A stretch of 64,000 nucleotides of DNA from the NCBI RefSeq assembly GCF_003334405.1, contig NZ_QOWM01000003.1, one strand, 5' to 3'. Under the pieces are notes generated by a model. That model saw only the letters and a program-made list of their open reading frames with translations. It was not told the DNA's origin and did not search any database. This DNA comes from Escherichia coli (lineage in GTDB: Bacteria > Pseudomonadota > Gammaproteobacteria > Enterobacterales > Enterobacteriaceae). Positions 2,892-7,842 of the stretch are shown here, piece by piece (position 1 is the stretch's first letter; every line of letters starts with the position of its first letter). Made by a program: the position numbers and the translations under genes.

Positions 2892-3145
2892 ATTAATGGA
2901 TTAACTATGTCGGTTAAACGACCAGCCAACTGAAAAAGCGGAAACCTGATTACAGGTTGCCAGATAAGGCAATGAGCTACCTGGCGCGGAACGGACTGAT
3001 AAGTATGGGGAATGTTTTACGATGAACCTTTAGACTAAAGAGTTTGTAACGCTATGTAAGTGATTTTTTCTGGTTTAGATATTTATATGTCCGGCCAAAT
3101 TGAGGTGTGTTTAAATGTAATTGCACATTGATTGTAGGAGGAATA

Positions 3146-3325
3146 ATGAAAAACGCATTGCAGTTTTTGTTTGTTGCGTTCTGGTTGTTCGCATCATGTA
3201 TGCCCATCATCTTCACAGCAAGGTATATGGAAAAAGTTGATGTTTTGATATTAATATTTGGATATATAAATGCCCTTTTTTTAGGGGTGTTCATGGCGGT
3301 CATGTGCATTGAATACTGGCGGTAA
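3146..3325 (+). CDS. small hydrophobic membrane protein (59 aa, two predicted TM helices)
   Basis: ATG at 3146 with consensus AGGAGG 5 nt upstream. Sequence MKNALQFLFVAFWLFASCMPIIFTARYMEKVDVLILIFGYINALFLGVFMAVMCIEYWR. Sits in an AT-rich stretch. Confidence 0.45.
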   Translation: MKNALQFLFVAFWLFASCMPIIFTARYMEKVDVLILIFGYINALFLGVFMAVMCIEYWR

Positions 3326-3559
3326 ATACAGCGAACTCCATTGGTTTAGTTGGATATTTACTGTGCTGGACAAAAACGGTTTGCGGGGAAATCTTAGTTA
3401 AGTAGAATGACTGCGGGTGCTTGAGGCTATCTGCCTCGGGCATGGACACCAACGGCAGATAGAGAAAAGCCCCAGTTAACATTACGCGTCCTGCAAGACG
3501 CTTAACATTAATCTGAGGCCAATTTCATGCTAGACACATGTAGGTTAGCCTCTTACGTG

Positions 3560-5200
3560 CCGAAAGGCACGGAGAAGCAGGCTATTGTTAACACCAAGCT
3601 GTAATGTCCCCTTTGAACCATTCTAAAATGTCCCCAGACAATTCTCTGGGGGATTTTTCATGATCAAAGAGACTGTTACGATGAGTCATAAGGAACTCCA
3701 CCGACTTCAGATTATTCAGGAACAAGCTGCGGCACGCATTGGCATTTCTATTCGGCAGGTTAAACGTCTGGTGCAACGGTATAGAAATGAAGGGCCTTCT
3801 GGTCTGGTTTCCCACCGACGTGGAAAGCGTCCTAATAATTCCTTTTCTACTGAATTCAGAGCAACAGTAATTTCACTCCTCAAAGGCCGTTACGCTGATT
3901 TTGGACCTACGTTTGCGTGCGAAAAATTGCGCGAGATACACGGTTTATCTTTATCCGTTGAAACTCTCAGAAAGTGGATGATAGAAGAGGGGTTATGGCG
4001 TGAACGCCGTCGTAAAATTGCCCGTATATATCAACGCCGCATGCGACGACCATCTTACGGTGAACTGATCCAGATTGATGGCTCACCTCATGACTGGTTT
4101 GAAAATCGAGGCCCCAGATGTACACTGATCGTTTTCATTGATGATGCCACCAGTGCGTTGATGGCGTTGCGTTTTGTGCCTGCTGAAACAACCCGGGCTT
4201 ACATGGAAACCCTCCGGGGTTACCTTAATGATCATGGCGTACCGCTCGCTCTCTACTCTGATAGACACAGTATATTCAGGGTAAATAACCCAGAGCGGGA
4301 AGGTGAGCTGACCCAGTTCACTCGTGCGATAAAGACACTGGGCATCGAGCCAATCCATGCCAACAGCCCGCAGGCAAAAGGGCGGGTAGAGCGCGCCAAT
4401 CAGACACTACAGGACAGGCTGGTCAAAGAAATGCGGCTTCAGAATATCAGTGATATTGAAACAGCAAATGCATGGTTGCCGACCTTTATTGAAGCCTATA
4501 ACAACCGGTTCGCTACGTCGCCTCGTACTACTGATAATGCTCATCTTGATGTGCACCATTCTGAAGAGGAACTGGGTTATATCTTCAGCCTACAGGCGAA
4601 GCGCGTTCTGTCTAAAAATCTCACTTTCCAGTACAAAAGCAGTGCGTTTCAGGTACGCAGTGAGGGCCGGGGATATCGACTTAGGCATTCGGTTGTTACT
4701 GTATGCGAGAACTTTGACGGTGAAATTAACGTTCTGTATGACGGGAAAGCGCTGGGCTGGGAAAAGTATGTTGATGGCCCGGAGCCTATACCACTGGATG
4801 ATGAAAAGAGTGTCCATGAACGAGTGGATAATGCCCGTATTGATTTACGCTCAAAATACTATGTTAAACCTAAAGCTGACCATCCCTGGCTTACGCGCCG
4901 AACGCAAAGTCATCAGCAAGTTAAGCCCCCGAAGTTACCTAAAAAGAAGCCTGATCCCGATAAAAAAGATTGAAACCAAGATCGATTCGGTTGAGTGCAT
5001 ATCCATTCATAGGGTAGATTCTTAAGTCGCGTTTCTGGTGTTCATTTTCGGGTGGTTTGTTACTTGTTTTACCGGGGATATGCCAGAAACGCGCTGAGTC
5101 AGTCTGGGCGGTGCGCGTAATGAGGCGTTATGGTAAATAGCCTATGCTAATGTCCGCTAAGAGCAAGAAGCGGAAGTTGGCAGTTTTGTGGACTGTCCCC
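3560..5200 (+). mobile_element. insertion sequence carrying the DDE transposase; ends not resolved
   Basis: Single transposase ORF flanked by non-coding sequence. I could not find clean terminal inverted repeats or a target-site duplication by eye, so boundaries are approximate. Confidence 0.45.
3660..4973 (+). CDS. DDE transposase with N-terminal HTH and rve/integrase-core domain (ISNCY/IS1202-like or IS481-like)
   Basis: 437 aa. N-terminal HTH (IGISIRQVKRLVQRY), then D (QIDGSPHDW), D (LYSDRHS) and E (RVERANQT) in integrase-core spacing. Basic C-terminal tail. Confidence 0.8.
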   Translation: MIKETVTMSHKELHRLQIIQEQAAARIGISIRQVKRLVQRYRNEGPSGLVSHRRGKRPNNSFSTEFRATVISLLKGRYADFGPTFACEKLREIHGLSLSVETLRKWMIEEGLWRERRRKIARIYQRRMRRPSYGELIQIDGSPHDWFENRGPRCTLIVFIDDATSALMALRFVPAETTRAYMETLRGYLNDHGVPLALYSDRHSIFRVNNPEREGELTQFTRAIKTLGIEPIHANSPQAKGRVERANQTLQDRLVKEMRLQNISDIETANAWLPTFIEAYNNRFATSPRTTDNAHLDVHHSEEELGYIFSLQAKRVLSKNLTFQYKSSAFQVRSEGRGYRLRHSVVTVCENFDGEINVLYDGKALGWEKYVDGPEPIPLDDEKSVHERVDNARIDLRSKYYVKPKADHPWLTRRTQSHQQVKPPKLPKKKPDPDKKD

Positions 5201-5409
5201 ACAAAAGTGACTACAGAAATAGTTGCAATTCATAATTGATCATGGGTTGTCAGTTAAACTCGTGGCGATTTAAATAGACTAATTGGGAGTGCGTCCATTA
5301 CTTATATCTTGTAATGTTAACTATCAGAAATGATACAAAGATAATATGTCTTTAAAGAAAAGGCTGATGGCGAAAAGTGGCCCGATGAGGGCCACAATAC
5401 GGCTGTCAC

Positions 5410-5742
5410 TTAGACGTAAATATCAATGGTGCCAGCGGTATTTGTATCGTCTTTTTTCTCTTCTTTTTTATCAGGCTGAACTGTCGCGTCTTCATTCTTT
5501 TTCTCTGCCTGCTGCCTTAACAACTGCTCCAGTTGAGCCCAGAGGCTTTCAATTTGCTTCTGTACCAATGCAGCCATTTCTTTTTTCTGCTGTGTCGTCA
5601 TCCCCTCTTCCGATGAGATTTTCCCAAGCTTTTCAGTCAGCACCTGAATTTGTCTTGTGATTTTGGCTATTTCTGATGTTCCTTCCGGGGCGGAGTTGTT
5701 TGAAATAACGGTTGAGGTATTTCCCTGAATTGTGACAGACAT
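5410..5742 (-). CDS. flxA: FlxA-like protein
   Basis: 110-aa protein recognised as Qin-prophage FlxA; AAGGAG RBS; sigma28-type promoter upstream. Confidence 0.85.
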   Translation of the reverse strand: MSVTIQGNTSTVISNNSAPEGTSEIAKITRQIQVLTEKLGKISSEEGMTTQQKKEMAALVQKQIESLWAQLEQLLRQQAEKKNEDATVQPDKKEEKKDDTNTAGTIDIYV

Positions 5743-5765
5743 AGATTTCTCCTTTTAAAAAAGCA

Positions 5766-5792
5766 CTATCGGCATGCACAAAAAAATCTTTA
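5766..5792 (-). promoter_or_regulatory. sigma28 (FliA) class-3 promoter of flxA
   Basis: On the minus strand TAAAGATT-N11-GCCGATAG, matching consensus TAAAGTTT-N11-GCCGATAA, about 25 nt upstream of the flxA start. Confidence 0.6.
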
Positions 5793-5944
5793 ATCGTATT
5801 TCTTGTGTCATTAATTGTTTGATGTTCAGATTGTTTTCCTCGCGGGCTGGCGCGCCTCAGAAAGTAAAGCTTGTTGACAGGGGTAAACGTTCGGCAATAA
5901 TTTTCTGCCGCATGCGGGTGTTGCATAAAACGTGTTACGTTCCT

Positions 5945-6250
5945 TTATCGACAGGTCAGGTCACCGCTCACCCGCCGACGAGAAAGCAACACTGACATGC
6001 TAAAGCAAAAAATAGATGAATAAGTTGAGTTGTGCATATGTAGCCTGACCGTCACAAAGTATATGGTGTCTGTACCAGTAAGATGATGGCCGGACTCTTT
6101 AAAAACGAGCTGACCTGCACAATACAGGATGGACTTAGCAATGGCTGCTCCTGGCACAAAGCGGACAGTGATCACCGTTCTTACGACTACTTTCTGACTT
6201 CCTTCGTGACTTGCCCTAAGCATGTTGTAGTGCGATACTTGTAATGACAT
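5945..6250 (-). CDS. ydfV: YdfV-like hypothetical protein
   Basis: 101-aa ORF positioned between flxA and relB as in Qin. Its 5' end lies over the relBE operator on the opposite strand, so coding status is uncertain. Confidence 0.5.
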   Translation of the reverse strand: MSLQVSHYNMLRASHEGSQKVVVRTVITVRFVPGAAIAKSILYCAGQLVFKESGHHLTGTDTIYFVTVRLHMHNSTYSSIFCFSMSVLLSRRRVSGDLTCR

Positions 6251-6266
6251 TTGTAATTACAAGAGG
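6236..6266 (+). promoter_or_regulatory. relBE operator/promoter (relO-like TTGTAAT repeats)
   Basis: TTGTAATGACATTTGTAATTACAAG with a TTGTAATTACAA palindrome immediately upstream of relB. Confidence 0.55.
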
Positions 6267-6274
6267 TGTAAGAC

Positions 6275-6514
6275 ATGGGTAGCATTAACCTGCGTATTGA
6301 CGATGAACTTAAAGCGCGTTCTTACGCCGCGCTTGAAAAAATGGGTGTAACTCCTTCTGAAGCGCTTCGTCTCATGCTCGAGTATATCGCTGACAATGAA
6401 CGCTTGCCGTTCAAACAGACACTCCTGAGTGATGAAGATGCTGAACTTGTGGAGATAGTGAAAGAACGGCTTCGTAATCCTAAGCCAGTACGTGTGACGC
6501 TGGATGAACTCTGA
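6275..6514 (+). CDS. relB: RelB antitoxin
   Basis: 79 aa, recognised as RelB; stop overlaps relE start (ATGA coupling). Confidence 0.9.
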   Translation: MGSINLRIDDELKARSYAALEKMGVTPSEALRLMLEYIADNERLPFKQTLLSDEDAELVEIVKERLRNPKPVRVTLDEL

Positions 6515-6801
6515 TGGCGTATTTTCTGGATTTTGACGAGCGGGCACTAAAGGAATGGCGAAAGCTGGGCTCGACGGTACGTGAACAGTTGAAAAAGAAG
6601 CTGGTTGAAGTACTTGAGTCACCCCGGATTGAAGCAAACAAGCTCCGTGGTATGCCTGATTGTTACAAGATTAAGCTCCGGTCTTCAGGCTATCGCCTTG
6701 TATACCAGGTTATAGACGAGAAAGTTGTCGTTTTCGTGATTTCTGTTGGGAAAAGAGAACGCTCGGAAGTATATAGCGAGGCGGTCAAACGCATTCTCTG
6801 A
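6514..6801 (+). CDS. relE: RelE mRNA interferase toxin
   Basis: 95 aa, recognised as RelE. Confidence 0.9.
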   Translation: MAYFLDFDERALKEWRKLGSTVREQLKKKLVEVLESPRIEANKLRGMPDCYKIKLRSSGYRLVYQVIDEKVVVFVISVGKRERSEVYSEAVKRIL

Positions 6802-6872
6802 ACCAAAGCATGACATCTCTGTTTCGCACCGAAGGTGACACTTCTGCTTTGCGTTGACAGGAGAAGCAGGCT

Positions 6873-7028
6873 ATGAAGCAGCAAAAGGCGATGTTAATCG
6901 CCCTGATCGTCATCTGTTTAACCGTCATAGTGACGGCACTGGTAACGAGGAAAGACCTCTGCGAGGTACGAATCCGAACCGGCCAGACGGAGGTCGCTGT
7001 CTTCACAGCTTACGAACCTGAGGAGTAA
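6873..7028 (+). CDS. hokD: Hok-family small membrane toxin
   Basis: 51 aa MKQQKAMLIALIVICLTVIVTALVTRKDLCEVRIRTGQTEVAVFTAYEPEE; below ORF-track cut-off, found by hand translation downstream of relE. Confidence 0.8.
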   Translation: MKQQKAMLIALIVICLTVIVTALVTRKDLCEVRIRTGQTEVAVFTAYEPEE

Positions 7029-7244
7029 GAGACCCGGCGGGGGAGAAATCCCTCGCCACCTCTGATGTGGCAGGCATCCTCAACGCACCCGCACTTAACC
7101 CGCTTCGGCGGGTTTTTGTTTTTATTTTCAACGCGTTTGAAGTTCTGGACGGTGCCGGAATAGAATCAAAAATACTTAAGTAGCGCGCAGGGATAAGAGG
7201 GATGGTCCCTTAAAGGGGAGAGCTAATTATCCGGAAGGATTCTG

Positions 7245-7496
7245 ATGATGAACATCGAAGAACTGCGTAAAATTTTTTGTGAAGATGGCCTCTATGCTGT
7301 GTGCGTTGAAAATGGAAATCTTGTTAGTCATTACCGCATTATGTGTTTGCGAAAGAATGGGGCTGCGTTAATTAATTTTGTGGATGCTCGGGTCACGGAC
7401 GGATTTATCTTGCGCGAAGGTGAGTTTGTCACTTCATTACAGGCATTGAAAGAGATCGGAATAAAAGCTGGCTTTTCTGCTTTTTCAGGAGAATAA
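7245..7496 (+). CDS. rem: Rem-like protein
   Basis: 83-aa ORF at the Qin rem position. Confidence 0.7.
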   Translation: MMNIEELRKIFCEDGLYAVCVENGNLVSHYRIMCLRKNGAALINFVDARVTDGFILREGEFVTSLQALKEIGIKAGFSAFSGE

Positions 7497-7562
7497 ACTC
7501 ATCTACAATCTTGCGCGGGGCTGAACTCCCGCTGAGTAACACCGTGCCACCGGAGAAAACCG

Positions 7563-7841
7563 ATGGCACGCAACGCAAAATATTACAATTCTGATAATTC
7601 GCCCGTTCTTGCCTGCACGCACGGGCGGTATTCTCACGCATTCAAGTCTGAATGGTTCCAGCACCCTCCATGCACTGCAGAACAGGCCGAATGGCTGATT
7701 CATTCTTACCGCAGGCGCGGGTTCGAGGTTAAGAAAGCTCTCAGTCTCGACTATCGGCACTGGATAATCTCTGTCAGGCTGCCTTATTCCGAACGCCCAC
7801 CACGTGCGTCCCGCACTTTCCAGCAACGGATCTGGAGGTAA
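7563..7841 (+). CDS. hypothetical protein (92 aa) upstream of ydfU
   Basis: ATG with GGAGAA RBS; ends 1 nt before the likely GTG start of ydfU. Confidence 0.5.
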   Translation: MARNAKYYNSDNSPVLACTHGRYSHAFKSEWFQHPPCTAEQAEWLIHSYRRRGFEVKKALSLDYRHWIISVRLPYSERPPRASRTFQQRIWR

Positions 7842-7842
7842 C

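Follow-up and report, generated by a model that had tools for sequence, protein, structure and literature searches.

A probable IS1202-family unit transposon carrying relBE in the Qin-prophage hokD locus of Escherichia coli, and its preference for hok sites

The stretch of Escherichia coli DNA analysed here comprises 64,000 nucleotides of contig NZ_QOWM01000003.1 (assembly GCF_003334405.1) and is referred to below as the window. Alignment to E. coli lacking the insert shows that positions 3586–6859 of the window (3274 bp) are a single insertion in the hokD locus of the Qin prophage. Judging from sequence comparison, this insertion is very likely a unit transposon of the IS1202 family, with one ISEsa1-type transposase, one pair of ends and a strong preference for hok sites. 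It contains the transposase gene (tnp), a cer-like Xer site, flxA, ydfV and the toxin-antitoxin (TA) genes relBE (Table 1). An earlier reading made from the sequence alone and restricted to positions 3560–5200 had reported an insertion sequence (IS) transposase without identifiable ends, and suggested that the element might be degenerate, that it might be a longer composite unit, or that the transposase might have been domesticated. The longer unit is what we find, at 3274 bp and with passenger genes, but it is not a composite of two IS, having one transposase and one pair of ends.

The limits of the element can be read from an uninterrupted locus, NZ_AP027745, in which the hok leader is contiguous with hokD. 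Nucleotides 5640–6285 of that sequence correspond to window positions 2939–3585 and nucleotides 6270–8303 to window positions 6859–8892; the two alignment blocks overlap by 16 nucleotides, indicating that about 15 nucleotides of target stand on both sides of the insert. This target-site duplication (TSD), GGAGAAGCAGGCTAT, is exact, abuts both ends of the element and is present as a single copy in the empty site, and within the window it occurs only at 3571–3585 and 6860–6874, against an expectation of 0. The left tip of the element reads TGTTAACACCAAGC... and the right tip ...GCTTTGCGTTGACA, with an inverted match at 22 of 30 positions (16 of the first 22), and the terminal 14-mer pattern is found in the 64 kb only at 3586 on the plus strand and 6859 on the minus strand. 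The ends have the features of IS1202-type ends, starting with TGT and pairing TGTTAACACC...AATGTCCCC with TGTCAACGCA...AGTGTCACC, and a second (A/G)TGTC block lies about 24 nucleotides inward at each end, the same layout with a second inner block as is described for ISAjo2 (Harmer and Hall, PMC10132070). E. coli genomes by the thousand align to the window up to position 3585 and then stop, with the locus annotated as hokD. The arrangement of relBE, right inverted repeat (IRR) and hokD is present in 1198 of 5426 complete E. coli genomes, while most of the others align only from 6859 on and thus have an unoccupied hokD. A 60% identical relative from a metagenome, a plain IS of 1422 bp with the ends TGTTAGTCCAAAGCAGTAATGTCCCC and ...GGGTTGACA, shares the same end architecture and has 14–16-bp duplications at unrelated sites, which independently validates ...GCGTTGACA as the homologous right end, at 6859.

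The absence of clean terminal inverted repeats and of a TSD, as noted in the sequence-only reading, holds inside 3560–5200 but not for the element as a whole, the right end lying 1.7 kb beyond that interval. An exhaustive 22-mer scan pairing starts in 3560–3660 with ends in 5000–5400 gave a best match of 15/22, with none of the form TGT...ACA, and a repeat search within 3560–5400 returned only short repeats at chance level. The weak direct repeat that had been remarked upon, TAATGTCC, is real (3602–3609 and 5148–5155), but it stands at the same level as many chance repeats and was rejected as an element end or target duplication; the copy at 3602–3609 belongs to the true left inverted repeat (IRL), of which it forms the inner block. 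Comparison between copies, which had been proposed as a way of defining the ends, did yield exact ends and a normal duplication, both from the copies and from empty sites. Also disregarded was an IRR-like sequence near 5870, CTTGTTGACA, which matches over only 7–8 nucleotides and includes TTGACA, the sigma-70 −35 consensus hexamer. The relBE operator repeats TTGTAATGACATTTGTAATTACAA (6238–6263) and an inner block of IRL, CTGTAATGTCCCC (3598–3606), have the heptamer TGTAATG in common, which is probably due to chance, as the block is also present in relatives that lack relBE.

Junctions at both ends with a 15–16-bp duplication of local sequence were obtained for 15 insertions, 13 of them in hok loci and two elsewhere; the duplication is 15 bp in the window and 15 or 16 bp in the 14 others. 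The duplicated sequences include GGAGAAGCAGGCTAT in Qin hokD (the window), GGAGAAGAAGGCCAT in an Enterobacter IncF hok (L004), TGGAGGGGCTATGAT in a Salmonella IncI pnd locus (L005), GGAGAAGTCAGCTAT in Phytobacter (L006) and GGAGAAAAAGGCTAT in K. pneumoniae (L007), together with 16-bp versions in three hok loci (L015, L031 and L126) and three further duplications of local sequence (L129–L131), the two copies in L131 differing by one nucleotide. Empty sites reconstructed from these junctions were matched in the plasmid collection, at 100% identity for both the pnd and the K. pneumoniae hok targets and at 96.6% for a third target; for the L006-type target there is only a 92.9% identical relative, on an Enterobacter plasmid. 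When metagenome and viral contigs were scanned with the 21-nucleotide right end, approximately 80 of the 92 loci recovered had on the right flank an open reading frame of the Hok family, starting in or just past the repeat and representing at least 13 different hok genes; a contig scan with the exact left end gave five loci only. All 11 plasmids opened from similarity lists carry the element in a hok locus, and in 10 of these tnp is co-directional with hok. Tandem IRR–15 bp–IRL arrangements, found in L021/L020 (on one metagenome contig) and in L050, imply that related elements share the target and re-use the regenerated site. The second element in L021 has a transposase just 86% identical to that of the window. 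One further locus, L095, is a hybrid with a pnd-type leader on the left, a hokD coding sequence on the right and no matching duplication, which points to recombination between two resident copies.

The position of these insertions is narrowly defined, as the duplication covers nucleotides −13 to +2 relative to the hok ATG in nine of 12 distinct targets and is offset by one nucleotide in the other three. Neither the start codon nor the Shine-Dalgarno sequence can be the determinant, however, since both are ruled out by targets in which the ATG is displaced and by targets already interrupted by an IS3-like element. Where the ATG lies 9–11 nucleotides further upstream, as it does in hokE-like and other chromosomal hok loci, the junction keeps its distance of 35–36 nucleotides downstream from a conserved TAGCC, and GGCAA or TGCAA still immediately precedes the duplication; two of these leaders have Rfam sok matches that end at the junction. 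In L108, L125 and L127 the duplicated 16 bp consist of GGAG(T/A) followed by 11 nucleotides of the IS3-like element (e.g. GGAGTTGTATGGGTCC). Because the end of that element stands in both copies of the repeat it must have inserted first, and the sequence downstream of the cut (Shine-Dalgarno, ATG and coding sequence) is therefore dispensable. These comparisons point to leader DNA upstream of the cut as the determinant. The IS3-like element, which ends in TGTATGGGTCCACCAC..., is found at three slightly different points in the hok GGAG(A/T) ribosome-binding site on several plasmids (L013, L033, L041, L046, L052, L108, L125 and L127), in some cases having arrived earlier than the relBE transposon, and may represent another mobile element that favours the hok ribosome-binding site.

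The transposase matches NCBIfam NF033594 ('ISNCY family transposase') at 456 bits against a cut-off of 250, Pfam finds N-terminal helix-turn-helix (HTH) domains and an integrase core (rve_3), and identical or near-identical proteins are named 'IS1202-like element ISEsa1 family transposase' in RefSeq. The uninterrupted reading frame of 437 amino acids with HTH and integrase core, as first described, is thus upheld, but the protein is not intact. In alignment with 446-residue ISEsa1-family proteins, to which it is 98% identical over 446 residues apart from a gap, it lacks nine residues (SINRHITQE, residues 22–30 of the 446-residue reference) through an in-frame 27-bp deletion in the first HTH, and this segment is kept in 24 of 24 aligned homologues. 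An AlphaFold model (predicted local distance difference test, pLDDT, 73) comprises two HTH domains and an RNase H-like core together with a beta-barrel and a disordered tail; on this model the first HTH would lose, through the deletion, the last part of helix 1, the first part of helix 2 and the turn that joins them. Because of this deletion the window copy is probably non-autonomous, and would be mobile only with transposase supplied in trans. The suggestion of a degenerate element therefore applies to the transposase but not to the ends or the duplication, all of which are perfect. Among the hokD-located copies retrieved, the 3274-bp deleted form and a 3301-bp full form are about equally frequent, and 13,387 indexed blocks of the contig collection list the exact sequence of the full-length 446-residue protein. 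The catalytic residues D140, D161–D162, D201 and E244, with Q251 at E+7 (numbered as in the window copy), are invariant in 26 aligned sequences, and the IS1202 signature (DDE with two extra conserved D that lie after the first D and before the second, and Q at E+7) is present. The best PDB matches found with Foldseek are TnsB of a type V-K CRISPR-associated transposon (CAST; 1.9e-14), IstA, MuA and Tn7 TnsB, whereas a sequence search of PDB returned only a weak retroviral integrase core, the similarity to TnsB being undetectable by phmmer. No ATPase, endonuclease, TniQ-like protein or other target-selector partner (TnsC/TnsD-like) is encoded among the open reading frames of the 3274-bp element.

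It could be argued that the mobile unit is ISEsa1 alone, about 1.6 kb in length (approximately 3586–5180) and without a duplication, with relBE, flxA and hokD as mere neighbours. Published data do give ISEsa1 a length of 1609 bp and inverted repeats of 15/22, without any duplication detected or target listed (Harmer and Hall 2023, PMC10132070), and the left module of full-length copies is of similar size at 1620 bp. We nevertheless regard this as very improbable, given that there is no inverted repeat tipped with TGT/ACA near 5100–5260, that homology between variants ends at 5178 without an end-like sequence or a duplication, that the partner of the left end lies at 6830–6859 in every variant and is followed by a copy of the 15–16 bp of the left flank, and that empty sites lack the entire 3.3–12.8 kb. 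Hardly any more credible is the proposal that homologous recombination between hok loci, or random insertion combined with selection at hok, has produced the pattern instead of targeted transposition. The flanks are homologous among many sites and the pnd/hokD hybrid L095 shows that exchange between copies does occur; crossovers in diverged flanks would, however, carry donor-type repeats, whereas the duplications observed are of the recipient type (TGGAGGGGCTATGAT in pnd, GGAGAAAAAGGCTAT in Klebsiella hok, GGAGTTGTATGGGTCC after the IS3-like element), 16-bp duplications also accompany insertions outside hok, and selection is unable to place independent events within ±1 nucleotide.

A decaying or domesticated transposase in an immobile unit, with the hok association going back to one old event that prophages and plasmids have since passed on, seems to us improbable too, if slightly less so. 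It would accommodate the nine-residue deletion in the window copy, the annotation of the E. coli copy as a pseudogene by the Prokaryotic Genome Annotation Pipeline (PGAP) and the retention of only the 3' part in K-12. Full-length 446-residue copies are common, however, elements 98–99% identical occupy strongly differing hok genes (hokD, hok, pnd and hokE-like), each with a local duplication, and tandem insertions occur at the regenerated target (L021 and L050). Domestication in particular is unsupported, since 3.3-kb copies in different replicons and genera are 98.5% identical over their whole length, each with its own duplication, and full-length transposases are 98–100% identical.

Several points must be set against a hok-targeted unit transposon. 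All of the evidence, that for transposition included, is comparative. On a C. freundii plasmid (NZ_CP056506, L128) the element is inverted, although its hok position is identical and its 15-bp duplication perfect; this is the sole inverted case among approximately 25 hok insertions examined. Chromosomal copies also exist outside hok (L008, L109, L112, L114 and L084), two of them with clean 16-bp duplications (L112 and L114) and one with a 6-bp repeat only (L084), so that on the sequences compared the preference for hok is strong but not absolute. The leader type of L007 and L125 is targeted although it lacks the TAGCC...GCAA motif. Sampling was uneven, as no right end differing from the 21-mer could be recovered by the scans and as the contig look-up is biased towards long chromosomal contigs, and the effect of the transposase deletion is deduced from a model of medium confidence (pLDDT 73). 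Lastly, a genuine short form of ISEsa1 (1609 bp, 15/22 repeats) may exist.

Under the reading that we prefer, a unit transposon inserted in a hok/sok locus, both halves of the target are still recognisable on either side of the element. The Rfam family RF01794 (sok) has a full-length match at 3415–3586 (104 bits); this is the sole sok match and lies to the left of the element, while hokD is without a sok/mok leader of its own. The hokD product, WP_000813254, is the same protein as in the uninterrupted locus. The components of a hok/sok locus (a sok/mok leader followed by a Hok reading frame of about 50 codons) are thus present, with the two halves split by the insert, and the right-hand repeat restores GGAG...AT before hokD. 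An arrangement with hok on the minus strand and the IS upstream of it was ruled out by the Rfam match, by the empty site NZ_AP027745 and by alignment to the R1 hok leader; the leader is on the plus strand and the coding sequence is displaced by 3.3 kb.

This arrangement bears on the well-known relBE locus of K-12, in which relB, relE and relF (hokD) are co-transcribed (PMC3598666). In a K-12-type E. coli (NZ_CP043191) the element is kept only from window position 4789 on, joined to ydfX/dicC, and because only this part is retained the textbook K-12 relBE-hokD ('relBEF') operon lies, by sequence comparison, in a 5'-truncated copy of the element. The K-12 gene ydfW corresponds to the last 49 codons of the transposase gene. 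The K-12-type segment is equivalent to window positions 4789–7028, and the ydfW/ydfX junction marks a deletion that took away the left end together with the hok leader and 1.1 kb of tnp. Elsewhere in the window, gathering-level Rfam matches at 10432–10824, 13334–13719, 17227–17425 and 21591–21711, comprising two cspA-type thermoregulator leaders, IS009 RNA and MicC, are consistent with an E. coli chromosome that bears a Qin-like prophage beside the ompN–ydbK region.

The frame IRL–tnp–Xer site...relBE–IRR recurs on many plasmids, in elements that are 98–99% identical or that carry a 90% identical transposase variant. It occupies no fewer than 15 different hok-family loci, at one position to within ±1 nucleotide and with a separate 15–16-bp duplication in each. 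Across these the left module (window 3586–5178) and the right module (6148–6859) are conserved while the middles differ, giving at least five cargo variants: flxA–ydfV in the 3.3-kb element, a cytochrome b-like gene and a CDF transporter in a 4.6-kb element, DUF1471/SDR/LysR genes in a 6.7-kb element, a decarboxylase/AraC/GlxA/MFS/SDR block in a 9.2-kb element, and ncrYCBA and chrBA with other genes in a 12.8-kb element. In nearly all IRR-anchored loci relB and relE lie at −584 to −58 from the right end. The putative Xer site is retained in all cargo variants, in each of which the conserved left module ends at the equivalent of 5178, and its arms match enterobacterial dif-like arms (PMC10132070, Table 8) at 10/11 and 10/11 positions around a 7-bp spacer. 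An identical core is found in a 4.5-kb ColRNAI plasmid, and the region by itself matches many plasmids. XerCD recombination as the cause of cargo exchange is unsupported, as variant homology runs 40 bp beyond the core to 5178; the site might serve to resolve multimers or cointegrates. Two loci, L027 and L053, share the terminal 21 nucleotides of the right end but have no relBE inside and non-hok flanks, and may represent a sister lineage with a different target.

Table 1. Features of the hokD-inserted element and its flanks (window coordinates)
Feature	Position	Strand	Basis or remark
Orphaned hok/sok leader (sok region and truncated mok frame)	3415–3585	+	Left half of disrupted hokD locus
Left TSD copy	3571–3585	.	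GGAGAAGCAGGCTAT
IRL TGTTAACACCAAGCTGTAATGTCCCC (3586–3611) and subterminal block AATGTCCCC (3627–3635)	3586–3635	+	22/30 against reverse complement of 6830–6859
Transposase gene, ISEsa1-type, IS1202 family, 437 aa	3660–4973	+	Open reading frame, NF033594, Pfam
Putative cer-like Xer region, core GGTGCGCGTAA-TGAGGCG-TTATGGTAAAT at 5110–5138	5015–5178	+	Arms 10/11 and 10/11
Variable cargo segment, here flxA and most of ydfV	5179–6147	.	Variant homology stops at 5178, resumes at 6147/6148
flxA	5410–5742	-	Open reading frame and annotation
ydfV	5945–6250	-	Open reading frame and annotation
Conserved right module	6148–6829	+	98.5% identical in variants with different cargo
relBE promoter/operator	~6238–6263		Within right module
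relB	6275–6514	+	
relE	6514–6801	+	
IRR, ...CACTTCTGCTTTGCGTTGACA, tip ACA	6830–6859	-	Presence/absence boundary in 5426 E. coli genomes is 6859
Right TSD copy	6860–6874	.	Provides hokD Shine-Dalgarno and AT of start codon
hokD (relF) coding sequence	6873–7028	+	Right half of disrupted target; 72 nucleotides downstream of relE

We propose that a transposase resembling TnsB, MuA and IstA would bind two sites at each end of the element and join the 3' ends to target strands staggered by 15–16 bp, the target being chosen through features of hok leader DNA just upstream of the duplication and without a TnsC/TnsD-like partner. Insertion would part hok (hokD in the window) from mok, from the Sok target and from its own promoter, and the hok promoter may read into tnp. 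The hok ribosome-binding site would be regenerated downstream of relE, creating a relB-relE-hok ('relBEF') operon, and the functions of relBE and the cer-like site would replace or add to plasmid-stabilising activity, and might so compensate for the stability function of the disrupted hok/sok locus.

Among described elements the closest is ISEsa1 (ISfinder; IS1202 group of ISNCY, proposed as the IS1202 family), which stands in a separate small branch of the family (Harmer and Hall, PMC10132070) and has a transposase 98% identical to that of the window, its published length of 439 amino acids corresponding to the window reading frame from the second methionine. It differs in that the window unit is 3274 bp long (up to 12.8 kb elsewhere) and has a 15–16-bp duplication, relBE with further cargo and a hok target. 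The similarity of 1609 bp to the 1620 bp of the conserved left module suggests that the catalogue entry covers the left module only. Nor does the element conform to a strict definition of an IS, as its ends lie 3274 bp apart and enclose flxA, ydfV, relBE and the Xer site. With the ISTde1 subgroup, for which 15–17-bp repeats are recorded while targeting is reported only for the ISAba32 group (Siguier/Chandler preprint, 10.1101/2022.12.17.520857), it has in common a duplication length within that range, TGT termini, a second block near position 20, a single DDE transposase and the DD and Q(+7) residues; however ISTde1 members are simple IS of 1.3–2 kb without target specificity, whereas in the window clade there are several kb of passenger DNA and insertion is directed to hok. 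Oriented, position-specific insertion by a short conserved site without TnsC/TnsD-like helpers is a property of the ISAjo2/ISAba32 subgroup of the same family (PMC10132070), but there the targets are dif/pdif Xer sites and the duplications are of 5–6 bp, located 5 bp from the XerC arm, in contrast to 15–16 bp in hok leaders, and an Xer site adjoins the insertion, while the only Xer-like site of the window element is internal (5110–5138).

Resemblances extend beyond the family to Tn7 and CRISPR-associated Tn7-like transposons, which likewise have a multidomain TnsB-like fold, ends tipped with TGT/ACA in which internal binding sites are repeated, and cargo enclosed by them, and which home to a conserved 'safe' site, a set number of nucleotides away from the sequence that is recognised; the window element differs in having no tnsA, tnsC or tnsD/tniQ genes and a duplication of 15 bp rather than 5 bp. 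Tn3-family transposons with TA modules, in which the pair lies beside the resolvase/res region, were reportedly described by Lima-Mendez et al. in mBio in 2020. As in those elements, a type II TA pair is here fixed in the backbone rather than being random cargo, and plausibly stabilises the carrier replicon, but the transposase family and mechanism are different, relBE lies against the right end and the locus targeted is itself a TA module.

The integration of relBE at hokD was reportedly noticed by Ramisetty and Santhosh in 2016 (cited in PMC6379469), so that the insertion as such had been recognised before. In the literature searched, from which that account was absent, neither the vehicle nor its ends, duplication, cargo family or targeting of hok is described, and the element goes unmentioned in a survey of Hok loci from 2026. 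On balance, and with definite reservations, we incline to the wider conclusion that ISEsa1 has been mis-delimited and that the real entities are cargo-carrying IS1202-type transposons with a backbone of relBE and a cer-like site, which home without helpers to hok/sok leaders on conjugative plasmids and prophages, each insertion creating a relB-relE-hok operon; the K-12 relBEF locus would then be a truncated copy of such a transposon.

Such a delimitation would explain why neither a duplication nor a target had been found for ISEsa1, the right end lying kilobases further away, and would provide a second mode of site-specific targeting for the IS1202 family, directed at a TA locus that marks conjugative plasmids and prophages. 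The helper-free, site-specific DDE transposase may also be of interest as a tool. Plasmid annotation should benefit too, since nickel, chromate and other cargo are carried between plasmids in this frame and arrive at a predictable site. For E. coli itself, the comparison shows K-12 relBE, among the most studied of TA loci, to be transposon-borne, and the odd relB-relE-hokD operon would result directly from insertion, which bears on how relBE deletions and hokD expression are to be read.

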